Positions 34,023 to 52,254 of a stretch of 64,000 nucleotides of DNA are shown piece by piece. Every line of letters begins with the position of its first letter. Position 1 is the first letter of the stretch. The notes under the pieces were generated by a model. The model worked only from the letters and a program-made list of their open reading frames with translations. It ran no database searches and had not been told where the DNA came from. This DNA comes from a virus. The DNA is taken from positions 31,097 through 95,096 of the IMG/VR virus record IMGVR_UViG_3300047557_002467. One strand, written 5' to 3'. The position numbers were made by a program, and so were the translations under genes.

Positions 34023-35720
34023 TTAGCTAGCTTGAGCTACTTGTAGGTCAGATACATATACCTTACCATAGTATTCAGGACGGATGATCTTCTTAGCGTA
34101 ACGAGTCATGATACCTTTTCTTGGAGTGAAGGTATTTGGATCGTACACTAATGGAGTCATGATCAATGGTACGTAAGGAGCGTATACGGCACCACACTCA
34201 AGGAACTGATTACCACGGAAGCCCATAAGGATTGTGTTCTCAGTCATGTATGGATTCTTATACACTTTATAACGGCTGTTAAGAGCACCGATCTTCTGTA
34301 CGCCGAATGCATACTTCATAGTGTCTGCTGCACCGTCTGTATCAGCTGCAAATCCAGGAATAGATTCCAAGATAGTAGCTACAGTTGGAGAACATACTAG
34401 GAAGTTAGCACCACCACGTAAAGTCAACTGATGGATCTTGTTAGATACAGCCTGAAGCTTGATACCCAAAGTTTGGAACCAAGACATTTGGTTGTAGTAA
34501 GCACCTGCTGTGTTAGATACATAAGCTGTACCAGCAGCATTGATTTGGTTACCGATTTGAGCAGACCAGTTTGCTACAGTTTGAGCATTCTCAATCAACA
34601 TGTCAAGGATTTCGAGGTCAATCTCAAGAGAGATGTACTCAGAAAGCATGCCAGTCAATTCAGCTTCAGCGTCAAGGCTGTGGTAAGCATTCAAGTCTTG
34701 AGCAAATTCTGGAGTCCATTGTGCTTTCAACTTACGAGTTTTAGCAGAAATGGTCTCAGACTTCATTTGTACGTTGATCTCAGGGATAACGATTGAAGCA
34801 GAGTTTGCAGCATTCGGGTTAGAGAAAGGAGCAGGTGTGTCGTTTGGAGCATCTTCGAAATCACCACGAGTTTGGAAGTTGGTAGATTTGTTATAGAACA
34901 AAGTTGAACCAGTAGCAAGAGATAGGTTAACGTTAGCAAGTGTAGAACCGCTCACGAAAAACACTAAGTTTGCACCTTCTACTACAGTGAAATCAGAGAT
35001 AATAGTGCTAGGATTAACTGCACCACCACCGCCAGATGAACCAGAAAGTTCAAATGCACGAACACCATTGGTATCAAGTACTAAAGAGCCTGTGTTAACA
35101 AAAACTTTAACCATTGTATTACCTACGATAGAAGCAGAGTAAGCAGAGTTAAAATTAATGTCTTTGAAAGTTGCAAGAGCTGCAGTGGTAGAACCAGAAG
35201 CATAAGAAGCAGAGAACTGGTTGATTGAATAACCAAAGCGACCTTGGCCATAAAGACCACCTTCAGCTAGGTTACCAAATCCACTGTTCAAAGTTTGGTT
35301 CAAAGTACCATAAACTGACTGACCAGCTTGGAATGGCTTAGGGATGCTGTTACCATACTGGAAGTCAAGGTAGAATACTAGACCTGCAGGAAGATTCATA
35401 GGCTGTACAGAAACGAATTCTTTAGCAGCAATCTGTCCAAAGATCTTACGAACCAATGGAAGAGCTACACCAGCCCACTGCTCACCATTACCTGGTGTGA
35501 AAGTAGCACCGTTTGTTACGTTACCGCCTGTTGAAGATTGCTCCATTACGAGCTGCTTTGCTTGGTTTTCCAAGATAACGGCCATGTTGTTGCGATCGTA
35601 GTCCTTAAGACCTTCGAGCAAACCAGACTTTGACCATTTCTTAGCAAGCCTCTGGCTAACACCAAGTTGATCTTGGTATGGGTTAGCACTTTCTAAAAGT
35701 GATTGTACGAGGTTTGACAT
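34023..35720 (-). CDS. major capsid protein, T4 gp23-like
   Basis: AVILENQ, VQPMNLPAGLVFYL, TRKLKAQWTPEFAQDL.AYH..DAEAEL, YAPYVPL, PRKGIMTRYA. Confidence 0.95.
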   Translation of the reverse strand: MSNLVQSLLESANPYQDQLGVSQRLAKKWSKSGLLEGLKDYDRNNMAVILENQAKQLVMEQSSTGGNVTNGATFTPGNGEQWAGVALPLVRKIFGQIAAKEFVSVQPMNLPAGLVFYLDFQYGNSIPKPFQAGQSVYGTLNQTLNSGFGNLAEGGLYGQGRFGYSINQFSASYASGSTTAALATFKDINFNSAYSASIVGNTMVKVFVNTGSLVLDTNGVRAFELSGSSGGGGAVNPSTIISDFTVVEGANLVFFVSGSTLANVNLSLATGSTLFYNKSTNFQTRGDFEDAPNDTPAPFSNPNAANSASIVIPEINVQMKSETISAKTRKLKAQWTPEFAQDLNAYHSLDAEAELTGMLSEYISLEIDLEILDMLIENAQTVANWSAQIGNQINAAGTAYVSNTAGAYYNQMSWFQTLGIKLQAVSNKIHQLTLRGGANFLVCSPTVATILESIPGFAADTDGAADTMKYAFGVQKIGALNSRYKVYKNPYMTENTILMGFRGNQFLECGAVYAPYVPLIMTPLVYDPNTFTPRKGIMTRYAKKIIRPEYYGKVYVSDLQVAQAS

Positions 35721-35752: not shown

Positions 35753-36946
35753 TTATCTAATTCCAGCTAATTGCTGCCATCTTGTTACAAATGAGTCAGC
35801 TTCTACAATTGGTCTAGCTGGAGCATGTCCAATTGGTTTTGAAGCAAATCCTACAGACTCTCTAAGTGAACCTTTCTTAGTTTCTGAACCAAGAGATTCA
35901 AGAAGTGTTTTGTAGGTGTTCTCAACTTCTTTAACAGAAACATTCCTGTCAAATGCGTCGATTACTTTTTTCTTCTGTGCTTCAGACAGATTCTTAGCTT
36001 TGAAGATCTTATTTACATAAAGCATCTTAGCAGAGAAAAGATTTACTTCGTTAAGTTCAGACTTAAGAGCCTTAATGGTTCTTACTGCTTCATTTAACTC
36101 TTTCTTCATTTCTTCTACTTGATGCACTTCTTCAGCATCAGTTTTAATTGAACCAGGAACTTTTGCAGCTTCTTCCATTTTCTTCTCTTCGTTTTCGAGT
36201 TCAGCAAGAATTTCTTCAAGAGAAATTTCTTCTTCATCGTCTACTTCCATCTCATCTCCACCTAAATCGGCAGCAAGATCAGTGTCAGCATCGAGAGCAG
36301 GACCCATATCACCAGCACCACTTTGAAGTTGCATAAATACATCACGAATGATTTCTTTAAGATCTCCAACTTCCAATTCAACTACTTCAGTTGCATCAGA
36401 AACAGGTTCGTCGGCTTTAGGGGCTTTAGAAGCAGGCTTGTCATCTTCAGCGCTTTCATCTTCATCGTTATCTGATTCTTCATCATCTGCTTCGTGGATT
36501 GAACTTTTTGCTTTTTCTGGATAGCCTGTACCTCCTTTAGTAGTACGTGCCTTCTCATCGTATCCAGTGTCGCCACTTACAGTGTGAGCTTTTTCAGAAT
36601 AACCAGCTGTGGTTCCTTGTTTTTTGGCTTCATCGATGTTGCCGTCCATTTCTTCAGATAAAGCGTCAAGTTCTGCAAGAATTTCATCGAGCGTGCTCTC
36701 ATCGACCATGTCGCTCATTTCTTCCATCTTGTGCTTTTTCTTTTCCATGTCATGCTTCATCTCTTCCATTTTGTCAGATTCTTCCATGTCAGCCATGTCG
36801 TCTTCAGACAGGGTTTTAGCCATGGATTCCTTAACGAAAGGTTCGAAATGTTCAGCGAGTGTTGCTTTAGCTGCAGCCATAGCTGTCTCACGAACTGCCT
36901 TTGCGTCAAGGATTGCTTGTTTGAACAATTCTTGATTTTCCATCAT
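35753..36946 (-). CDS. prohead core/scaffolding protein, T4 gp22-like (start adjusted to MMENQ)
   Basis: Acidic coiled-coil protein directly upstream of MCP; many L/I-x-E sites; internal LDEILAEL/LEEILAEL and GYxEKA repeats; ends RWQQLAGIR. Confidence 0.75.
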   Translation of the reverse strand: MMENQELFKQAILDAKAVRETAMAAAKATLAEHFEPFVKESMAKTLSEDDMADMEESDKMEEMKHDMEKKKHKMEEMSDMVDESTLDEILAELDALSEEMDGNIDEAKKQGTTAGYSEKAHTVSGDTGYDEKARTTKGGTGYPEKAKSSIHEADDEESDNDEDESAEDDKPASKAPKADEPVSDATEVVELEVGDLKEIIRDVFMQLQSGAGDMGPALDADTDLAADLGGDEMEVDDEEEISLEEILAELENEEKKMEEAAKVPGSIKTDAEEVHQVEEMKKELNEAVRTIKALKSELNEVNLFSAKMLYVNKIFKAKNLSEAQKKKVIDAFDRNVSVKEVENTYKTLLESLGSETKKGSLRESVGFASKPIGHAPARPIVEADSFVTRWQQLAGIR

Positions 36947-37035
36947 AAATTTGTTTCGGGGATTGCTAATTAGATTGTGTAGCAATATAAGGGTAAGAGT
37001 AATTCTTAGACACCATATTAGAATGGGGTACTATG

Positions 37036-37079: not shown

Positions 37080-37400
37080 TTATTTAATACCAAACGGTTC
37101 ACCTGTAACACTGTGTACAGCTTTTCTATAAGCTTTTTGAAATTCGCTTTGGAGTACTTTCATGAGAAGGTCTTGTAGTGGTTGGTTATTTTTAAGTAGT
37201 GCTATCTTACCTTCACCTTCGTCATGGAAGAATGCACTAACCTCTACAAACATTGTATCTCTACCTTGAGAATCGTCTATTGTAAGTCTTATTGATGGTA
37301 CATCGTCATAGATGTTTGGATCATCTATAGAGTTTACTTCGTTTTCAACAACTCCTGCCAGTTCTTGGAGTCTTTTAACTTCGTTAAGTTGTTGTTTCAT
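37080..37400 (-). CDS. leader-tagged small protein (divergent QKIAG-family member)
   Basis: Starts MKQQLNEVKRLQELAGVVENE; lies between protease and scaffold; start adjusted to ATG at 37400. Confidence 0.65.
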   Translation of the reverse strand: MKQQLNEVKRLQELAGVVENEVNSIDDPNIYDDVPSIRLTIDDSQGRDTMFVEVSAFFHDEGEGKIALLKNNQPLQDLLMKVLQSEFQKAYRKAVHSVTGEPFGIK

Positions 37401-37402
37401 AG

Positions 37403-38035
37403 TTAAGGCTTTAAGCAACAAACACCTGATTGAGTGCAGATGATGTCTGAAATAAGTTTGTTAACACTGTCGTATTTGTTGTAACTAATTAATGGATTAT
37501 ATGACTCATTAATCCCTGAAATTGGTTTTACATATGCACCAAACGTTGATGGTATTGATACAAAGTCCCAACAAATTAACTCTAGGTCGTCTTCAACTTG
37601 CACAAGTCCTTCTCCAATTGGTGTTACAGAACCCATTGCACGAGATGATACGCCTACGTTAATGCCTGCCATAAACAATTGTCTTAGAATATTGCCAGAT
37701 GGAGTATCAAGAATTTCAAACTCACCATACAAATCCTTATCCTGCCACCATAGTTTGGTAATGTTATGACATACATTCTTAAGGTTTATAACAGAAGACT
37801 CAGGATGATCTAACTCTCCTAAAGCTCTTTTCTCCATAACAGGACCTTCTACATACAACTGTACCTGCTTTGCTAATACATCATAATCATAGATACGACG
37901 GTTAGCATTAGGCTTATTGGCAGCTTGTACCTTTCCTGCAACCAAAAAAGGTTTATTAGGATTGTATCTAGCCTCATTAAGCTGCTGCTGTAAAGGCTCA
38001 AAAAGCATGTGTTCTATCAGTACTTGTTTGGCCAT
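37403..38035 (-). CDS. prohead maturation protease, T4 gp21-like
   Basis: N.N.RIY, ALGELDHP, GVSSRAMGS, WDFVSIPS. Confidence 0.93.
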   Translation of the reverse strand: MAKQVLIEHMLFEPLQQQLNEARYNPNKPFLVAGKVQAANKPNANRRIYDYDVLAKQVQLYVEGPVMEKRALGELDHPESSVINLKNVCHNITKLWWQDKDLYGEFEILDTPSGNILRQLFMAGINVGVSSRAMGSVTPIGEGLVQVEDDLELICWDFVSIPSTFGAYVKPISGINESYNPLISYNKYDSVNKLISDIICTQSGVCCLKP

Positions 38036-39278: not shown

Positions 39279-39770
39279 TTAATCTTCGTTATCCCAACCT
39301 AAAGCTTTGCTTAAATTTGTGTAACCCTTTGCTAAATCTTTTATATTACCAACCATGTCATCTAAACCCATAACCTCCATATCAAAACTATCAAGTTCGT
39401 TTGTCAAGTCTTCAAGTTTTACTACATTATCTGGTCTTTCAAAGAAATCATATTGCTCTATTACAGAGTAGTAGTCTCCAATACTTTTTTCTGTTCTTTT
39501 TCTAATATCCTTCAAAGTGGCTTGATATTCGTCCAGCTTTTTTGGATCCTTTGATAGGTCTTTTACTGATAGATCTTCAATTTTACCTGTAATTGAGGCT
39601 ACTGTTTTTTTATTATCATCAAGTAACTTGGCAGCTTCTTTTACATACTTCTCTGCTTTTTTTTCAGGTCTATCAGAAAGAGGGTTATCGGATAGTTCAA
39701 GTTCTTCTTTAAGAAGACCTGCTATCTTTTGTAATTCGTGTACCTCTTTTATCAATACCTTTCTTTTCAT
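39279..39770 (-). CDS. QKIAG-leader family protein (helical cargo)
   Basis: Start adjusted to MKRKVLIKEVHELQKIAGLLKEELELSDNPL. Confidence 0.75.
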   Translation of the reverse strand: MKRKVLIKEVHELQKIAGLLKEELELSDNPLSDRPEKKAEKYVKEAAKLLDDNKKTVASITGKIEDLSVKDLSKDPKKLDEYQATLKDIRKRTEKSIGDYYSVIEQYDFFERPDNVVKLEDLTNELDSFDMEVMGLDDMVGNIKDLAKGYTNLSKALGWDNED

Positions 39771-41828: not shown

Positions 41829-43769
41829 TCACAATAAATCCGGCTTAATTTGGTTTTCATTAAGCAAGTCACTCTCTTTGTAGAGGTTTACTCTTCTACT
41901 CCATGCTTCGAGTGCTGTTTTATTCTTTAGATAAGCAGCTTTTGTTATTGCATTTTCCTTCAAACTCAACGGATTACCACCTTTATACTTTACTTTTAAG
42001 TTATCTTCTGCTGTGGTTGGTTTAGATTTTAGATCATAAACACCCATCCTATCACGTCCTAACGGATCGTCAGATGTGTTAATAAGAGATACTTTGTCTT
42101 GTGGTCTACCAGGAAGTTTAACAGGTTCAGAAGGATTGATTTCATCGTATCCTTGAGGTACTTCATTACCTGCTAGATTAGTGTTACCATACCCACCGTA
42201 CATTGAAGCAATTTGGTGTGGTGTACCGTATGCCTGACCGCTTTCTGCTGGATCGTTACCTTCTTCTTCAATCTGTTTCATACGGAACATTCTCTTCTTA
42301 TCCTCAACAACCAAGTCACGATACTCGTCAAATTCCTCTTCAGAGAAGTGGAACAATTTATCGTAAATCCAGTCAGTAGGCAAGAAGCTTGTTTCCATCA
42401 TCTGTGCTGCTAGATCCATCTTCTCTTTCATCAATGCTACCCTCTCCTGCTCGTAAATGATAGATGGAGTTGTGAGCATTAGATCGAAATTGGTTAATGA
42501 CTCATCGTCATAGCCATGGGCATAAAGGTGAACAAGAGCAATCTTAGTAAGTTCAGATAGTACAATACGTTGTATTCTCTCGATAGTACGAGCAAATCGA
42601 ATGTCCTCAGCAGCAAGTGTTGCCTTACCTGTAAGATCTTTTTCATACCCTAAAAATGCTTTTGGAATTTTAAGTGCCGCAAACAATTTGTTAAGTAAGT
42701 AGTTAACGTCTTCAATACCGTTATACTCCAGTGGTGGTGCATTATCAATCCTTGTTGACTGATCATTTCCTCTTACAGGAATGAAAAAGTCTTCAAGCAT
42801 ATTCTGCACATTATAATTAAGATTATACTGTCCTGTTTTACCGTCAACAAGAGGAGTTTTCTTCATCTTGCTGATCATTCTTTGCATGTAGTTTTCTACT
42901 TCATTTGGAGGAATGGCACCTACATTCACATAGAAAATTCTACGTTGAGGAGCACGTGTTATACGATGAATTAACATCGCATCTTCCATCAACACATACT
43001 GCTTATACAACCTTCTACCTGGCTCTAAATAAGAACGTCCGTAGGGTAGGTAGTTCATATCACCAATCAATCTTAGGTGAGCCATTTCGTAATTGTAGAA
43101 AGTAATACCTAAGTCTGTGTTTTGGTATGAAGTAGAGTAACCTGCTGTTGCACCAAGTGCAGCTGTTGGATCGTACTTGAATATAACCTCAGATGGATTA
43201 CTTGGATTAGTACCTTCAAGCCTAACAATGTTGTATGCTGAGAAAGGAATCACATTGTAAACACCAAACTTCTCTGCTATTTCTAGCTTCAAGAAGAAAT
43301 CTCCGTACTTACACATATTCCTAATCCAGAACCATAGGTTAAATTCTATGTTTAGGATATCATAGAAAAGACTGTAAAGGATTTTTTGGATGTTTTCATC
43401 AGCAGATCTAATCTGTAACACTTCACCTTGAGTGTTTTTCAGTGTGCATTCGTCTGCAATAATATCCAAAGCAGAAGCAACAATCGGATCTGTGTCCATT
43501 GCTTCGTAGTCTGCGTAGATTTGTACGCGCATACTTTGGTAGTTCTGCGCTAAATTTAGGTTTACACCATAAGAAGTTGACGTGGTGTATATACGATTAA
43601 ACCTATCTACAAGTGCATTCGTCTGCAGAACACCATTAACCTGTATGTTCTCAACGTCTACGGTCTTTAATTCTCCTCCGTCATTACGAATAATAACATC
43701 GGTAGAAAATAACCTTTTTAACGCTGAAAATAGGTTATTACGGGGTTGTTGAATTTGTTCTTCTGCCAT
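41829..43769 (-). CDS. portal protein, T4 gp20-like
   Basis: SYLEP.RR..KQ..LMEDAMLIHRITRAP.RRIFYVNVG.IP, MLEDFFIPVRG, YL..KLFAALKIP, EDIRFAR.I.RIQ. Confidence 0.95.
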   Translation of the reverse strand: MAEEQIQQPRNNLFSALKRLFSTDVIIRNDGGELKTVDVENIQVNGVLQTNALVDRFNRIYTTSTSYGVNLNLAQNYQSMRVQIYADYEAMDTDPIVASALDIIADECTLKNTQGEVLQIRSADENIQKILYSLFYDILNIEFNLWFWIRNMCKYGDFFLKLEIAEKFGVYNVIPFSAYNIVRLEGTNPSNPSEVIFKYDPTAALGATAGYSTSYQNTDLGITFYNYEMAHLRLIGDMNYLPYGRSYLEPGRRLYKQYVLMEDAMLIHRITRAPQRRIFYVNVGAIPPNEVENYMQRMISKMKKTPLVDGKTGQYNLNYNVQNMLEDFFIPVRGNDQSTRIDNAPPLEYNGIEDVNYLLNKLFAALKIPKAFLGYEKDLTGKATLAAEDIRFARTIERIQRIVLSELTKIALVHLYAHGYDDESLTNFDLMLTTPSIIYEQERVALMKEKMDLAAQMMETSFLPTDWIYDKLFHFSEEEFDEYRDLVVEDKKRMFRMKQIEEEGNDPAESGQAYGTPHQIASMYGGYGNTNLAGNEVPQGYDEINPSEPVKLPGRPQDKVSLINTSDDPLGRDRMGVYDLKSKPTTAEDNLKVKYKGGNPLSLKENAITKAAYLKNKTALEAWSRRVNLYKESDLLNENQIKPDLL

Positions 43770-43787
43770 ATATGTAATAAATATCTT

Positions 43788-45377
43788 TTATCCAAGAAGC
43801 CAGCTAATATCATCTACTTGATTGTTACCAGTTGATATTTGCCATGGATTGTTGGTGCCAGTTTGGCGTCCGTTATAAATTTCGTAACTCTGATTTGAAT
43901 TACTAAAGTTCTTGAGACTTGCATACGTTAGATCCATAGCTGTTTGCCTGAATCTAATTGCTGTATCTCTCAAAAAGAGTGCTATATTGAAAGACATTAC
44001 AAGGTCGTCATTATATCCGTGTAAAGCTTGTGCTTTTCCGTTCTTCCAAATGAACACTCTATACTCGTCTAAGAGTCTTTGTGAACGTATAATAACAGTT
44101 TTCTCTTCGATAAATGATCTTGCTTTTTCAATTACAAGAGGTCTTGTTCTCTGGTTCATACTAAAGCCAGCAACCATTCCGTCACCCTTATCAAATCTCT
44201 CAACATAAAGATCAATTTGAGTACCTACAATCTCGGATTTTGGAGAGTAATACAAGTTGTGATAGCCACTCTCTTGTATAGATGTTACTACATCCCATCC
44301 AATACTTGCATTTTCAATTACAAGCAAAGCATTGTTCCATTCAATTGCAGTTGCTAAAAGTTTACGACCAAAATCTTTAGTTGAAATTTGATCTTTAAAC
44401 TCTGCTACTTGCATTAAGTTGTCTACATCTATGACATGGAAAGTAGAAAAGTCCATACCATCACCTCTAGCTACGTCTGCTACAACCATATAAGTTTTAA
44501 GAGGATCTGGATATTCAAACAACCAATACACACCACCCATATCTCTTCTTTCTAAAGGTTCTCTTACAGTTTCAACTTGGTAGTAATTTAGTACATCAGG
44601 TTCAATAACAGTGTTACCTGAAGTTGAAAAGTCACAATCACACTCCTGTGCAGCTGCTCTAGGACCTAACTGAGCTGTCTGTTCATCTCTCCACTCTTGT
44701 GTTCTCTCAGGATGTACTGTCCAAGGTAATGCTATTGGAGTAAATTTATTCTCTCCAATTTGAGCTCTTGAGAATTCTCTGTGAAACCAGTTACCTACAC
44801 CGTTTGGAGTAGAGATAGCAATACATCTACCACCAGTAGCAAGTGTTTGTTGTGCTGCTGTGAAGATCTCTTCTATTCTTTCAATGAAAGCTGCCTCATC
44901 TATTACTAGCAAAGATACTGCTTCAGAACGTGCTGAGTCAGTTGCTGCTGATACTGCTTTGATTTGAGAACCATTTTTTAGTCTTAGACTCAATCTGTTG
45001 TGTTCCATTACAGGCAACTTCATCCAGTTAGGTAGATTGTCGTATGCAAACCTAACCTTAGTTACCATGTTCTTAGCTGTTGCTTGTGTGGTAGCAAGTA
45101 CAAGGATGTTTTTATCTCTTTCAAAGAGCATCATCCACAATGAAAATGCAGAAGTCAACGTTGATAAACCAAGCTGTCTTGACTTGTTAATTATAGAATA
45201 ATCGTGCTTTTGAAGTAGTTTGAGTATCTTCTCTTGAAACGGATACAAATTAAACATCATTCTACCTTTTGTAGGATGTTGTATCGTATAATACTTCTTC
45301 ATAAAGTAAACAGGATCCTGCTTACATTTAATTAATTCTTGCTTTATTGCATCACTTATTGCTGCTTGTGTAGCCAT
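43788..45377 (-). CDS. terminase large subunit, T4 gp17-like
   Basis: LYPFQ, KSRQLGLST, VIDEAAF, STPNG, ADVARG.G.D, G.NDDLVM. Confidence 0.95.
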   Translation of the reverse strand: MATQAAISDAIKQELIKCKQDPVYFMKKYYTIQHPTKGRMMFNLYPFQEKILKLLQKHDYSIINKSRQLGLSTLTSAFSLWMMLFERDKNILVLATTQATAKNMVTKVRFAYDNLPNWMKLPVMEHNRLSLRLKNGSQIKAVSAATDSARSEAVSLLVIDEAAFIERIEEIFTAAQQTLATGGRCIAISTPNGVGNWFHREFSRAQIGENKFTPIALPWTVHPERTQEWRDEQTAQLGPRAAAQECDCDFSTSGNTVIEPDVLNYYQVETVREPLERRDMGGVYWLFEYPDPLKTYMVVADVARGDGMDFSTFHVIDVDNLMQVAEFKDQISTKDFGRKLLATAIEWNNALLVIENASIGWDVVTSIQESGYHNLYYSPKSEIVGTQIDLYVERFDKGDGMVAGFSMNQRTRPLVIEKARSFIEEKTVIIRSQRLLDEYRVFIWKNGKAQALHGYNDDLVMSFNIALFLRDTAIRFRQTAMDLTYASLKNFSNSNQSYEIYNGRQTGTNNPWQISTGNNQVDDISWLLG

Positions 45378-46146: not shown

Positions 46147-46899
46147 TTAATCTTCGTCGTCAACTAAAAGTTCTTTGATACGATTTATCATTTCCTCATT
46201 ATCGTAGTCTACATCCAATAACTCACCAGCAATTAATTCGACTAAAAAATCTGTGTTTTCTGTAGGTAAACCTATTTCTTGTTGTATTGTAATTAGAAGA
46301 TTGTATAAATCTGTAAGAGGTCTTTCGTCTTCCTCATCTCTTCTCCTCTTTTTAAAAATTCTAATAAGTTGACTCTTGTACTTATCTACTACATAATCAA
46401 TATTCTTTTTTCTCTCTGGACCGAGTGGATTGAAGGATAGATCGAGATCTTCAGTTAATTTAATTGCTCTTTCTATACTCTTTATTCTATTGTTTTTTAA
46501 CTTTTTTAAAGCTTCTACAAACCTTATAAAGTAGTCTATGAAGTCATCAGCTGTATTATATTTTTCAGGCTCTGCTTCGAATTTAGATAATATAGCATCC
46601 CATATTTGATCAAACTTTTGTAAGTCTTCTTCCTCTTCGTAGAAACCATCAATCCATTCCCCAAAATCACCTACCCATCCTAATAGACTCCCTTCATGTC
46701 TATATAATTCTTCTTCACCATCAGCTTGCACTTTAGAAATATGACCTGCAGCATCTGCAATAAAATTAATAAGAGGAGCTATATCTAAAGTATCTCCTCC
46801 TGATAAAGGATTGCTAGAGAAATCTAAATCATCTTCTTTCAAAAGACCTGCTATCTTTTGTAGTTGTCGTACTTCGTTGATGTTTGCTTTCTTTTTCAT
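46147..46899 (-). CDS. QKIAG-leader family protein, two acidic cargo modules
   Basis: Start adjusted to MKKKANINEVRQLQKIAGLLKEDDLDFSSNPL; internal IKLTEDLDLSFNPL. Confidence 0.8.
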   Translation of the reverse strand: MKKKANINEVRQLQKIAGLLKEDDLDFSSNPLSGGDTLDIAPLINFIADAAGHISKVQADGEEELYRHEGSLLGWVGDFGEWIDGFYEEEEDLQKFDQIWDAILSKFEAEPEKYNTADDFIDYFIRFVEALKKLKNNRIKSIERAIKLTEDLDLSFNPLGPERKKNIDYVVDKYKSQLIRIFKKRRRDEEDERPLTDLYNLLITIQQEIGLPTENTDFLVELIAGELLDVDYDNEEMINRIKELLVDDED

Positions 46900-46903
46900 A
46901 TTG

Positions 46904-47407
46904 CTAGTCTTCTTCGTCTTCATCATCTGATCCTTGTTCGTAATACTCTGCTTTACCTTCCATAAACAAGTCGTAAATATCGTCGCTCAATCCAGGTACC
47001 AATTCGTCTAGTTGATTTTTGGATTCTAGATAGGTTCTTTCTTCGCCGTCTTCTACATAGCCTGCTCCAAGAATGTGTACGTCAGCAACATCTCCGTCGA
47101 ATTCCCCATCGTAAAAATAATCGTCGTAGGTTCTCCAACCTGATTCCAAAACATCCACATAAGTGTTTACTGCTCTCATTAATCTAGGACTACCACCTTT
47201 ATCTAATACTTGAGATTTAACTAAAGCATCTAACTTTGCTAAATATTCATCGCTTAAAAAAATATCAGTATTTGCAAAAGGATACTTAGTTAAATGCTTG
47301 TCAGATTTAGTGCGTAGTGGATTGTCACTAAAATCAAGATTATCCTCCTTGAGAAGACCTGCTATTTTCTGTAGTTGTTTAATCTCGTTTATAAATTTTT
47401 TTTTCAT
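46904..47407 (-). CDS. QKIAG-leader family protein (acidic cargo)
   Basis: MKKKFINEIKQLQKIAGLLKEDNLDFSDNPL. Confidence 0.8.
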   Translation of the reverse strand: MKKKFINEIKQLQKIAGLLKEDNLDFSDNPLRTKSDKHLTKYPFANTDIFLSDEYLAKLDALVKSQVLDKGGSPRLMRAVNTYVDVLESGWRTYDDYFYDGEFDGDVADVHILGAGYVEDGEERTYLESKNQLDELVPGLSDDIYDLFMEGKAEYYEQGSDDEDEED

Positions 47408-47850
47408 CGTTGTAAACCCTCAGCTAATTTATCAAAAAAATTAACATAATCTCTTGCTGATTTAAAGCTCTCGTCGTTTTTGTTTATCTTTTCCATTATT
47501 ATATCGTACCAAATATATTCGAATTCATCCATCTCTTCTTCTGTTTCAAAGTAGTCACCACTATCTTCTCCAAAATCAGAAATATGTCCAGACAATATAC
47601 CTGGGGTATCATAAGGTTCGTCTAAGTTTTTTTCTGTTGATGCTATATAACCTGATACAATCTCACATACTTCTGCCAAACTATTTTTAATTTTCTGATC
47701 CCTGTTTTGTATTTCACTTACAACTTCCTTAACTAGTTTTTCTATATTTCCTAATTTTAATGGATTGTCACCTAAATCAAATTCATCTTCCCTTAAAAGA
47801 CCTGCGATCTTCTGTAGTTTTTGAACTTCGTATAGATAGTTTTTGTTCAT
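47404..47850 (-). CDS. QKIAG-leader family protein (acidic cargo, paralog of 48300-48995)
   Basis: Start adjusted to MNKNYLYEVQKLQKIAGLLREDEFDLGDNPL. Confidence 0.8.
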   Translation of the reverse strand: MNKNYLYEVQKLQKIAGLLREDEFDLGDNPLKLGNIEKLVKEVVSEIQNRDQKIKNSLAEVCEIVSGYIASTEKNLDEPYDTPGILSGHISDFGEDSGDYFETEEEMDEFEYIWYDIIMEKINKNDESFKSARDYVNFFDKLAEGLQR

Positions 47851-47860
47851 AATTACTAAC

Positions 47861-48283
47861 TCAATACCCATCAATACTCTCTACATATTCTTCAGGAAAC
47901 CAACCTTCGTGTCCACCTTTTCTATTTCGTATTCCATACCAAATACCATTTTTATGTTTAGATACATAGTCATTTACCCAATCTTCAAATAAATCATATC
48001 CGTAATCTTCAGCAGCTTCTTCATTGTTAAACAATTGATCCCAATCACTAAGATCACCACCCCTTTTAACTGCTTCATCATAGTTTTTAGCTACTTGATC
48101 AACATATCCAAACATAGGTGGTTCACCTTCAAATCTAAAAGCTACTTCATCCCCTTTTTTAAATTTCCCTTTTGAGTAGTTTGGAATTAGAGGATTCATG
48201 TTAGTATCTAAGTCATCTTCTTTCAAAAGACCGGCAATTTTCTGAAGCTGTTTCACTTCTTTAAGTAGAGATTTTTTTTTCAT
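47861..48283 (-). CDS. QKIAG-leader family protein (SH3-like cargo)
   Basis: MKKKSLLKEVKQLQKIAGLLKEDD; FKKGDEV...WYG....GGHEGWFPEEYV. Confidence 0.8.
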   Translation of the reverse strand: MKKKSLLKEVKQLQKIAGLLKEDDLDTNMNPLIPNYSKGKFKKGDEVAFRFEGEPPMFGYVDQVAKNYDEAVKRGGDLSDWDQLFNNEEAAEDYGYDLFEDWVNDYVSKHKNGIWYGIRNRKGGHEGWFPEEYVESIDGY

Positions 48284-48299: not shown

Positions 48300-48995
48300 T
48301 TAATATCCTTCGTACTTATCTAAATCACTTAATTCTACAAAAGCATCTGGGTCTGAGCTGTCTTCTAAATCAAGAAAGAAATCTTCAACGTCAGTTGTTC
48401 CTGCATTTTTCATCTCTTCTTTATAAATGTTTACGAGTTTTTTTATTTCTTCTGGTGTTGGGTCAGAATCTTCGTAATAATATTTTACTTTTTCTTCGAT
48501 TTCTTTTTCAATTTTATTAAAAGGGTCGTCTTTCGATTGAATATCATCATCTGATTTTCTTATTGTTTTAGCTAAAGTGTCAAAATAATTAATATAATCT
48601 CTTGTAGTTTTAAATAGTTTTTTATTGTTTACAACACTTGTTAGTATTAGACCAAACCAATTGTTATTAAATTCGTAATTTTCTTCATCAGAAAAAGAAT
48701 CATCGTAGTCACTACTAAAATCCTCTATGTAATCTGTTAAAAAACCTGGTGTATTTAAAGGTTCGTCTAAATTTTTAAAAATTCTACTTAAATAGGTTGA
48801 AACCTTTCCGAGAAATTTAATTAGTTTAATCCTAAATTGATCATCTTCAATTTGTAAATTGTTAGCAGTTGTACTTACTAATTTATCAAAATTCACAGCT
48901 TGAAATGGATTATCATCCAAATCTAAATCTTCTTTTAGAAGACCAGCAATCTTCTGTAATTGTCTTACTTCGTTAATTAAGGATTTCTTTTTCAT
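48300..48995 (-). CDS. QKIAG-leader family protein (acidic cargo)
   Basis: MKKKSLINEVRQLQKIAGLLKEDLDLDDNPF. Confidence 0.8.
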   Translation of the reverse strand: MKKKSLINEVRQLQKIAGLLKEDLDLDDNPFQAVNFDKLVSTTANNLQIEDDQFRIKLIKFLGKVSTYLSRIFKNLDEPLNTPGFLTDYIEDFSSDYDDSFSDEENYEFNNNWFGLILTSVVNNKKLFKTTRDYINYFDTLAKTIRKSDDDIQSKDDPFNKIEKEIEEKVKYYYEDSDPTPEEIKKLVNIYKEEMKNAGTTDVEDFFLDLEDSSDPDAFVELSDLDKYEGY

Positions 48996-48997
48996 AA

Positions 48998-49489
48998 TTA
49001 TGATTCTGTTTCTTCTGCTGCTGCTACTTCTGGTGACGTTTCTTCAGGTGCTTCCTCTGGCTCTCCTGCTGATGATGTTTGCTCTTCTCCTTCAGGTCCT
49101 TTTGTTTGAATTGGATTACCCATTGCTAGAAGCCTTGCAATAGCGTTAATACATCTTTCTCTTTCGCCAATTGTTTGAAGATAGAACTTCTTACCAGCTA
49201 CAGTAGCTTCATAAGCCTTACCCATAAACGTCAAAAGGAAGTCTTGATCGTTATGCAACACGCATTTGAAAGTTGTTGGCTTTGGTGCTACAATATAGAT
49301 ACCTGTAAGATAATCTTTATACGCATCAGACATTAGCATTGAAAGTGTCTTATCTAGTGTTGGATACTTACCTAATATGAATGCTATAGGATTATCTTCA
49401 AAAGATTGAACTTTTGCTTCCATCTTCTCAACTTCATTGAGAATTAGTCTTCTTACTATGTCTTTTTTTGTCATATTAATTGTATTCAT
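48998..49489 (-). CDS. hypothetical protein with acidic tail
   Basis: 163-aa ORF, N-terminal IVRRLILNE; true start may be the second Met. Confidence 0.65.
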   Translation of the reverse strand: MNTINMTKKDIVRRLILNEVEKMEAKVQSFEDNPIAFILGKYPTLDKTLSMLMSDAYKDYLTGIYIVAPKPTTFKCVLHNDQDFLLTFMGKAYEATVAGKKFYLQTIGERERCINAIARLLAMGNPIQTKGPEGEEQTSSAGEPEEAPEETSPEVAAAEETES

Positions 49490-49865
49490 TTGGTTGAAGT
49501 TGGTCTTCCGGGAACCAGCCTCTGATTTGTCCTTGATTATTCTTTACTTGGTACCAAACACCTTGTTTTAATTCTTGAAATCTTCTAGGATCCATTGAAA
49601 AACCATAGTCCCAATAAAACCAATCACCGTTAGGATCTTTTCTTTTTGCTTCATCGTAGTTTTTTGCTACATCCTCTATAACATAAAATTCAGCTTCCTC
49701 ATTTCCTTGATAACTAAAAGTATGTACTACCTCATCTCCAATTGTAAATTCGCCATATCTTGATTTTGTACTAAGAGGATTGGTTGACAAATCAAAATCA
49801 TCCTCCCTCAAAAGACCCGCTATCTTTTGTAGTTGTTTAACTTCGTTTATGTATCTTTTTTTCAC
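49476..49865 (-). CDS. QKIAG-leader family protein (SH3-like cargo)
   Basis: GTG start; KKRYINEVKQLQKIAGLLREDDFDLSTNPL; WYQVKN...RGWFPED. Confidence 0.8.
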   Translation of the reverse strand: MKKRYINEVKQLQKIAGLLREDDFDLSTNPLSTKSRYGEFTIGDEVVHTFSYQGNEEAEFYVIEDVAKNYDEAKRKDPNGDWFYWDYGFSMDPRRFQELKQGVWYQVKNNQGQIRGWFPEDQLQPNEYN

Positions 49866-49877
49866 TATTATTCAATC

Positions 49878-50282
49878 TTACTTATACCATACAATAAATG
49901 GTCCGTATTGCTTAAGATACATATCAAAGAATTTTTTACCTCTTCTATATTCTTGTGGTGGAAGAAAACTCCATTTTATTTTTATGTTGTTTTCTTTGTT
50001 CACTTCTCCAATTTCACTATCCATAAGTTCATCGTAAGAATTAAAAACTTTTTTAGTATAACCATTAGACGGATCATCTAATTTTGCAATAATTTCATCT
50101 ACATTGTCCCAATATGGTCTATCCTTTTGATCATGTATCCTGTCTTCTTCTGTAAATTTTCCCCAGAAATCGCTTAAATTAATACTTTCTGAGTCAGCTT
50201 CAGGTTTAAACTCATATTCATTCAAAAGACCAGCGATTTTCTGTAGTTGTCTTACTTCGTTGATTAGTTTTTTGTTTTTCAT
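49878..50282 (-). CDS. QKIAG-leader family protein
   Basis: MKNKKLINEVRQLQKIAGLLNE; lacks the DLSDNP extension. Confidence 0.8.
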   Translation of the reverse strand: MKNKKLINEVRQLQKIAGLLNEYEFKPEADSESINLSDFWGKFTEEDRIHDQKDRPYWDNVDEIIAKLDDPSNGYTKKVFNSYDELMDSEIGEVNKENNIKIKWSFLPPQEYRRGKKFFDMYLKQYGPFIVWYK

Positions 50283-50890: not shown

Positions 50891-51112
50891 CTATTTAAAA
50901 TTTGGGTGTACTGGAATCACTTTTTCTAAATTCTGTTTCTCTTGTTCAGAGAACTCGTAACCCATTGTATTTTTAACACTTCTTGTTGCAAAATCTACTG
51001 CTTCTTTAGGATCATAACCTCTCTTAGATAAACTATATGCAATTTCAAGAGCATCTTTCATTGCTCTTCTTTTGTTTTGCACTTCTTGTAATATGTTGTT
51101 TAGTTTAATCAT
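50891..51112 (-). CDS. small protein with MIKL-type leader
   Basis: MIKLNNILQE start. Confidence 0.65.
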   Translation of the reverse strand: MIKLNNILQEVQNKRRAMKDALEIAYSLSKRGYDPKEAVDFATRSVKNTMGYEFSEQEKQNLEKVIPVHPNFK

Positions 51113-51810
51113 GCTCTAAGAGAATTTAACCATGCATACATTTCAGCTTCATACTCTGCGTTGTATTCTATATTTGGAATTTCACCATGAAAAAATCCTT
51201 CTACTTTACCCATGTCTATTACTTTTTTCACAGTTAATCCTCTTTTTAATGGATAAATGTCTATTTCCATAGAATCACCTACTACTTCTCCTTTAGAATC
51301 CAACATGTAGCATCTCCCTTCAAAATCTCCAAATCCAATAGAATCTCCAAATGTATAAGGAACGACCCCCGTTTTATCATTTCTTACTAATTGAAAAGTA
51401 TTACTGTTAGTTATATCATCAAATGAAACATCTCTTCTTGCAAGTGGGTTATCACTCAAATCTAAATCTTCTTTTTCGTTAATACGATTTTTTACTCTTT
51501 TCTTTACTTCTGGATATATTACATTTTCCATTGTATGATCGAACTTTTCGAATCCTATAGAAGTTTCTAATTCTCTAAGTGCATCATATATCTCACTTGC
51601 TTGAAAGTCCAATTGACCTTCATACCACCAATCAAAGTCACCATCGTAATTTTGTATGCAATCCTCTACCATCAAATCTACTATCTTATTCACTAATCTC
51701 TTTTTCCTCAAAGCACTAAAAGGATTATCGCTTAAATCAAAATCATCCTCTTTCAAAAGACCTGCTATCTTTTTTAGTTGGCGTACTTCGTTTATGTTTA
51801 TCTGTTTCAC
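51109..51810 (-). CDS. QKIAG-leader family protein, two cargo modules
   Basis: GTG start KQININEVRQLKKIAGLLKEDDFDLSDNPF; internal RINEKEDLDLSDNPL. Confidence 0.8.
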   Translation of the reverse strand: MKQININEVRQLKKIAGLLKEDDFDLSDNPFSALRKKRLVNKIVDLMVEDCIQNYDGDFDWWYEGQLDFQASEIYDALRELETSIGFEKFDHTMENVIYPEVKKRVKNRINEKEDLDLSDNPLARRDVSFDDITNSNTFQLVRNDKTGVVPYTFGDSIGFGDFEGRCYMLDSKGEVVGDSMEIDIYPLKRGLTVKKVIDMGKVEGFFHGEIPNIEYNAEYEAEMYAWLNSLRA

Positions 51811-51831: not shown

Positions 51832-52254
51832 TTATTGCCAGATCCAATAAGTATGAGAGTCTTCTATTCCTATTGCAAGTTTAAATTCGTAGCCGTCTAA
51901 TTCTTCATTATCACCACCATACTCTTCAGGAGACCTAAAATCAGAAGGAAATTCATAGCTCATAAAAAACTTTCCTTCATCTTCTTGTCTATTTAATGTT
52001 ACCTCTTTTTGTATTCTCTTTGCAACATCAATTGCTCTTAGTACTAATGGTGGTTTTTCCCTACCAAAATGGGTATATTCGACCACACAATCCTTGTTCA
52101 AATCTATACCAGCTTCTCTAAATTTGGTAAGCACTTCTTTTTGAACAGCTAAAGGATTATTAGAAAGATCTAAACCCAAGTTTTCTTCTTCTTTCAGAAG
52201 ACCAGCAATTCTCTGTAGTTGTCTTACTTCGTTAATTAGTTTCTTGTTTTTCAT
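51832..52254 (-). CDS. QKIAG-leader family protein
   Basis: MKNKKLINEVRQLQRIAGLLKEEENLGLDLSNNPL. Confidence 0.8.
   Translation of the reverse strand: MKNKKLINEVRQLQRIAGLLKEEENLGLDLSNNPLAVQKEVLTKFREAGIDLNKDCVVEYTHFGREKPPLVLRAIDVAKRIQKEVTLNRQEDEGKFFMSYEFPSDFRSPEEYGGDNEELDGYEFKLAIGIEDSHTYWIWQ

Follow-up and report, generated by a model that had tools for sequence, protein, structure and literature searches.

The source of this DNA is an uncultured T4-like phage. The stretch that was analysed (64,000 nucleotides, here termed the window) carries a T4-type head module in the order gp20-gp21-gp22-gp23, with every gene of the region on the minus strand (Table 1). The nearest cultured relative is Flavobacterium phage immuto, whose capsid protein is 57% identical to that of the window. 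The gene in the gp22 position has its likely start at the ATG at 36946, within an ORF that is open from 36985 (397-410 residues), and encodes an acidic protein (pI 4.5, 25% D+E) with no match in Pfam or among the PHROGs and nothing significant against T4 gp22 by BLASTP. Profile alignment to T4 gp22 with hhalign recovered 13 columns (K-D-L-T-E-S-Q-K-x-K-V) at an E-value of 1.3e-3, with a probability of 18% only. The protein contains 22 [LIV]-x-E sites, a twofold excess over the 10.2 ± 2.8 found in shuffled sequences. The product of 35753-36985 is called the scaffold here because of its position, its acidic composition, the excess of [LIV]-x-E sites and the short match to T4 gp22. Its orthologue in immuto, gp067 (L001:19140-20381), carries the annotation 'DNA polymerase phi-like protein', which is probably a low-complexity acidic false match.

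Table 1. Coordinates of the head module, the scaffold tail and the leaders of small genes in the window
Feature	Position	Strand	Evidence or remark
Large terminase	43788-45377	minus	
Portal, gp20 family	41829-43769	minus	
Prohead core serine protease, S77 / gp21 family	37403-38035	minus	Pfam PF03420 7.4e-25; phrog_207 4.1e-46
Small gene immediately following the protease gene, ahead of the scaffold gene	37080-37400	minus	
Divergent leader of that small gene, ends V-V-E	37344-37400	minus	
Scaffold (gp22-position) gene	35753-36946	minus	Between the S77 protease gene and the gp23-like capsid gene
I-V-E, putative prohead-protease site just upstream of the tail	35801-35809	minus	Conserved position
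Scaffold tail, last 15 residues: amphipathic helix S-F-V-T-R-W-Q-Q-L and C-terminal hook A-G-I-R	35756-35800	minus	Translation, AF2
Major capsid protein, gp23 family	34023-35720	minus	Pfam PF07068 5.9e-77; candidate receptor of tail and leaders
Leader of gene 39279-39770, ends L-K-E	39705-39770	minus	
Leader of gene 46147-46899	46834-46899	minus	
Leader of gene 46904-47407	47345-47407	minus	
Leader of gene 47404-47850	47788-47850	minus	
Leader of gene 47861-48283	48218-48283	minus	Cargo C-terminus SH3-like
Leader of gene 48300-48995	48930-48995	minus	
Leader of gene 49476-49865	49803-49865	minus	GTG start
Leader of gene 49878-50282	50217-50282	minus	
Leader of gene 51109-51810	51748-51810	minus	GTG start
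Leader of gene 51832-52254	52189-52254	minus	

The scaffold tail and the leaders of eleven small genes

A sequence-only reading of the window had reported that the scaffold ends in a short element which recurs at the start of neighbouring small genes. Both sequences were recovered as described: translation of 35756-35791 on the minus strand gives the reported 12 residues, followed by a TAA stop at 35753-35755 (the range given at the time, 35753-35790, misses the twelfth codon by one base), and the divergent leader of the adjacent gene (core 37347-37379) and ten further family leaders read as that account had them. In the AF2 model of the last 80 scaffold residues, two confident helices are followed by a linker of ~30 residues modelled with low confidence (pLDDT 57-63) and then by a helix at residues 68-76; the last four residues (A-G-I-R) are non-helical. 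The tail is modelled with a pLDDT of ~78 and has a hydrophobic moment of 0.42. Across 54 orthologues of the window scaffold R72, A77 and G78 (numbered within the last 80 residues) are invariant, in a protein that is otherwise largely free to vary. At 12-13 residues before the Ala of the tail there is a conserved [ILV]-x-[ED] site. It is I-V-E in the window, and takes the form [IVL]-x-[ED] in clade A and [IL]-x-E-G in clade B. By analogy with the specificity of T4 gp21, the scaffold would be cleaved at I-V-E upstream of the tail.

Eleven small genes of the window open with a leader of 19-22 residues built around the core [VI]-x-x-L-Q-x-[IL]-A-G-[LV]-[LV]-x-E. The leaders end in A-G-[LV]-[LV]-x-E or V-V-E, so placed that [LV]-x-E sits 3-4 residues past the Gly. 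AF2 models the leader as a single helix (residues 2-24) followed by a low-confidence linker that is acidic and contains proline. The helices of tail and leader are amphipathic (hydrophobic moment 0.42-0.52) and have a hydrophobic face in common. Among residues that are identical in the eleven leaders, 48% of the codons differ synonymously, which argues that selection acts on the leader peptide; an RNA-level element was dropped as a candidate on this variation. When a profile of the window leaders was run against 1.84 billion proteins, 312 cluster representatives were matched, and in about 146 of the 150 best of these clusters the match begins within the first six residues of the protein (protein length 35-444 residues). 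The divergent leader gene has syntenic copies in four close relatives (L004, L005, L009 and L011).

The mature parts of the eleven leader proteins have no Pfam family in common. Two of them, encoded by 47861-48283 and 49476-49865, end in an SH3-like segment, G-W-F-P-E-[ED]; Pfam SH3_2 matches the first at 6.7e-4, under the curated cut-off. Two others (46147-46899 and 51109-51810) repeat the post-leader linker, E-D-L-D-L-S-x-N-P-L, in their interior but not the helix; the repeat is perhaps an internal processing site.

Tail and leader across related phages

When tail and leader of the window are aligned on A-G, ~7 of 10 positions are alike: V at -7, a hydrophobic residue at -4, Q at -3, L or I at -1, the A and G themselves, and I or L at +2. 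Residues differ at -8, with E in leaders against F in tails, and at -4, where leaders have L and tails W or M. A PSSM built from the leaders only placed the scaffold end at rank 18 (6.4 bits) among 67,947 windows of ten residues, and with a leader-only HMM run on the window the scaffold end was absent from the best matches. The reverse search used a tail-only HMM, built from scaffold tails without that of the window and without any leader. Among the 806 ORFs of the window it matched leaders at E-values of ~0.5-1.2 each, and nine of the ten best non-scaffold matches were leader proteins, although these are paralogues and count as roughly one observation. By the window alone, the likeness of tail and leader is only suggestive and not statistically convincing.

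Related phages were sampled as loci surrounding capsid genes, with 80 for the closest capsid genes, 80 for Mel-JY01-like and 33 for RM378-like ones. The L-A-G motif closes the ORF immediately upstream of the capsid gene in 73 loci of the clade of the window, 73 of the Mel-JY01 clade and 31 of the distant clade (177 contigs), in the form [RK]-h-x-x-L-A-G-[ILM] followed by 0-4 residues and the stop. Cultured RM378, XacN1 and MIJ3 have the same ending, and GAP32 has a variant, K-L-S-G-M plus four residues. In a few marine variants N or K replaces the G; a marine subgroup of the Mel-JY01 clade (L090, L100 and several of L107-L131) ends in R-W-K-K-L-A-N-[LI], where the otherwise invariant Gly is Asn. 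In the distant clade (capsid proteins ~34% identical to that of RM378, some contigs > 350 kb) the tails read L-R-K-L-A-G-M and the leaders M-D-x-N-x-L-R-K-L-A-G-L-P, and several proteins begin with two tandem tags 25-35 residues apart (L170:2458; L179:7915 and 8370; L187:525). Even at ~35% capsid-protein identity, no part of the scaffold is better conserved than the tail, and the remainder changes fast.

T4 gp22 (L087:5118-5927) and the scaffold of the T4-like Synechococcus phage DSL-LC03 (L202:1383-2471) have a different conserved tail, Y-x-K-x-x-S-R-F, and the L-A-G rule therefore fails for some T4-like phages. Y-x-K-x-x-S-R-F may be the counterpart of the L-A-G tail in the T4/cyanophage branch. 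A propeptide motif of the capsid protein, K-W-x(2-4)-L-L-E-G then [IL]-[LF]-E-N-Q, is common to the window, RM378 and T4 gp23 (N-terminus at 35550-35720 of the window; L087:5946-6200; L084:2769-3023) and is kept even in T4, which is without the L-A-G tail.

Run against 16,290 six-frame ORFs of 82 related loci, the tail-only HMM gave five matches with E < 0.01 other than scaffold ends, and all five were N-terminal leaders; the matches at E 0.01-0.4 outside scaffold ends were leaders as well. The resemblance of tail and leader thus exceeds chance. Single genomes can be closer still. In one (L073) the leader V-A-R-M-Q-Q-L-A-G-I and the tail V-A-R-M-Q-K-L-A-G-I are one position apart, and in immuto Q-K-L-A-G-I-I is common to the leader of gp083 and the scaffold tail. 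The two elements also vary together, with Q at -3 in both tail and leader in the clade of the window and R or K in both in the distant clade. Covariation of the scaffold end with the leader motif, which the sequence-only reading had put forward as a check, is present at the level of clades: at six variable positions, leaders match the tails of their own clade at 2.0-2.1 and those of the other clade at 1.09, a comparison that amounts to effectively one independent phylogenetic contrast. It does not extend to single genomes, as leaders resemble the tail of their own genome no more than other tails of the same clade (1.98 vs 2.10 of 6 positions). That reading is supported in part: a copying of the C-terminal element of the scaffold by the leaders is borne out by many genomes and by two distant clades, in which tail and leader vary together, and the docking of both at one site of the capsid protein is a candidate mechanism. 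The window itself is a modest instance of a widespread and well-supported sequence pattern.

The distribution of the two elements bears on the direction of copying. In the Mel-JY01 clade 0 of 73 loci have a leader within 10 kb of the capsid gene, though the tail is present. A whole-genome search of Mel-JY01 with the leader profile found none, and leader profiles found nothing in GAP32, XacN1 or RM378, in both cases with a first-look filter that may miss such short motifs. In Pseudomonas phage MIJ3 there is a single weak internal match (E 0.06), A-K-L-A-G-I-S-T-I-T-E inside a 742-residue ORF (L205, record 102050-102109), possibly an internal tag with its cleavage site. As the tail persists in the Mel-JY01 clade, in which these searches turned up no leaders, its role would be independent of them. 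On this distribution the tail seems to have come first, with the leaders as later copies which draw on its function. The motif is also met at the other end of a protein: a ParB-like, nuclease-like protein (D-G-H-H-R-W) encoded between protease and scaffold (L039:7581-8486) ends in I-A-R-L-K-K-L-A-G-L and a stop, so the tag may be able to act from the C-terminus too.

A proposed clip-off address for the prohead

We infer packaging, cleavage and a receptor of the tag as follows. The last ~15 residues of the scaffold would form a helix and hook on a flexible linker, serving as a conserved anchor inside the prohead, and the leaders of the eleven small proteins would copy this anchor (core [VI]-x-[RQK]-h-Q-x-[LI]-A-G-[LI]). 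A leader-bearing protein could then make the contact of the scaffold tail and be built into the prohead. The S77 prohead protease would cut past the Glu of [LIV]-x-E, a site found at the junction of leader and cargo (A-G-L-L-K-E) and immediately ahead of the tail (I-V-E). This would release a tail peptide of ~15 residues and a leader peptide of ~20 residues with similar C-terminal ends; the cargo would be freed inside the head, and both small docking peptides could leave with the scaffold fragments. Stated without regard to the receptor, the reading of the leader as a clip-off address which brings cargo into the prohead via the contact of the scaffold tail is given a probability of roughly three in four.

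The receptor favoured here, by analogy, is the capsid protein. In 80alpha and P22, among others, the coat protein is bound by the C-terminus of the scaffold (PMC5644958). The tail is much better conserved than the remainder of the scaffold, as would be expected if its partner evolves slowly, and eleven types of cargo would need an abundant receptor. When the capsid protein and the final 50 residues of the scaffold were modelled as a complex, without controls, the score of 0.01 against a mark of 0.32 weighed neither for nor against binding. The whole reading, with the capsid protein as receptor of tail and leader alike, is put at slightly worse than even odds. The portal was dropped as a candidate receptor, as it would have too few copies for eleven types of cargo.

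The serious rival is a receptor in the scaffold core, as in T4. The same tag would then make its contacts within the core, by like-with-like association of helices with scaffold tails or by binding another core protein, and the leader proteins would co-assemble into the core instead of docking on the capsid protein. Published accounts of T4 credit its targeting sequences with an affinity for the core (PMC9026906, PMC5694885), and the T4 internal proteins are core components (PMC9026906, PMC5694885, PMC3012670). The common hydrophobic face of the tail and leader helices would suit such an association, and the tandem double tags of the distant clade suggest avidity in a multivalent assembly. However, the tail is retained where no leaders were found, and its conservation points to a slowly evolving partner, whereas a self-binding element could drift with itself. 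On balance a core receptor is considered unlikely, if still a real contender.

A processing role finds some footing in the position of the motif, which adjoins the [ILV]-x-E site in tail and leader alike, and in the small gene with the divergent leader lying directly after the protease gene. The common element would in that case be a docking or recognition site (exosite) for the S77 prohead protease and would reflect processing, not loading. This is improbable, since the motif is absent from the capsid protein and from the remaining 21 [LIV]-x-E sites in the scaffold, the T4 protease needs little besides its short site (PMC9026906), and a low-copy protease would hardly hold eleven kinds of cargo in quantity. 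Likeness without common function (generic K/R/Q-rich helices with a small-residue break, or a leader that is a translation/RNA element or serves secretion) would fit the non-significant match within the window, but is very improbable in view of the cross-genome statistics, the near-identical pairs and the clade-level co-change, with synonymous variation among leaders speaking against an RNA element and the lack, by eye, of a hydrophobic signal-peptide core against secretion.

The reading of the leader as a prohead address could extend well beyond the window. In its broadest form, the L-A-G helix-and-hook would serve as a general code for entry into the prohead in a very large branch of T4-like phages, one that does not include T4 and spans flavobacterial and cyanobacterial phages to jumbo phages. 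The element at either end would load a protein via the scaffold-tail site on the capsid protein, and the dose of each cargo would be set by competition with the scaffold. The weaker hydrophobic residues of leaders at -8 and -4 and the tandem tags on some proteins would provide the basis for such dosing. We regard this extension as speculative and rather unlikely.

Relation to known packaging systems

In T4, the capsid targeting sequence (CTS) is found on the internal proteins IPI-III and Alt and is removed by gp21 (Mullaney & Black 1996, reviewed in PMC9026906, PMC5694885), and prohead proteases of the T4 family cleave past a Glu following a short motif (PMC9026906). The leaders are like the CTS in being short N-terminal propeptides on diverse, fast-changing small proteins and in ending at a Glu site, and the phage of the window is like T4 in having a gp21-family protease and a gp20-gp21-gp22-gp23 head module. 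Unlike the CTS, which has 10 residues, the leader has ~20 and is a recognisable copy of the C-terminal tail of the phage's own scaffold. By eye, the leader sequences do not resemble the CTS that the literature gives for T4, and T4 gp22, with its other C-terminus and without an L-A-G tail, has no obvious likeness to the CTS either.

A parallel for the copied element is offered by the 80alpha scaffolding protein and SaPI1 CpmB, which have in common a C-terminal helix-and-hook (R-I-I-K) that sits on the N-arm of the capsid protein (PMC5644958). As there, the scaffold of the window ends in an extreme C-terminal amphipathic helix and a short hook with hydrophobic residues and Lys/Arg. In the 80alpha case a second protein with a homologous copy uses the same site, and here it is the leaders that carry a homologous copy. 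However, the 80alpha mimic is the alternative scaffold of a satellite, changes capsid size, and carries its copy at the C-terminus like the scaffold itself, whereas the copies described here are N-terminal, stand on the phage's own cargo proteins and are followed by a protease site. For 80alpha the structure of the bound element has been solved, and for the phage of the window a contact with the capsid protein is a candidate.

Encapsulin cargo-loading peptides and engineered P22 scaffold-tail fusions, which load enzymes into capsids, demonstrate that a short terminal peptide suffices to send unrelated proteins to the inner face of an HK97-fold shell. Encapsulin tags differ in that they are not known to copy a scaffold or to be clipped off, and the P22 fusions are products of engineering. 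Searches of the literature on T4-like phages found no account of a targeting tag that resembles a scaffold tail. Both the targeting sequence of T4 and the mimicry of scaffold tails are known, and the tag is a new variation on them.

Since the 1990s, all that has been known of how T4-type heads pick their cargo is that a short N-terminal sequence has an affinity for the core. A tag copied from the anchor of the scaffold would give this choice a concrete mechanism, and such tags an evolutionary origin. It would also provide a sequence rule by which candidate injected proteins of uncultured phages can be listed, and injected phage proteins are often anti-defence factors. At least one cultured phage, Flavobacterium phage immuto, has both a leader (on gp083) and the scaffold tail, so direct tests are possible. 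If the general-code reading is true, the tag would be a natural, portable and predictable handle with which to read or programme what these phages inject.

A departure from the L-A-G tail is met in the uncultured 484-kb phage LR756508 (L085). Its scaffold tail is R-M-Q-K-L-A-D-I-S, with the G replaced by D, and two N-terminal leaders at L085:2105 and 2376 keep L-A-G. The same phage has, at L085:9085-10841, four tandem small genes with another common N-terminal leader, K-x-L-R-x-h-h-x-E-E-h.
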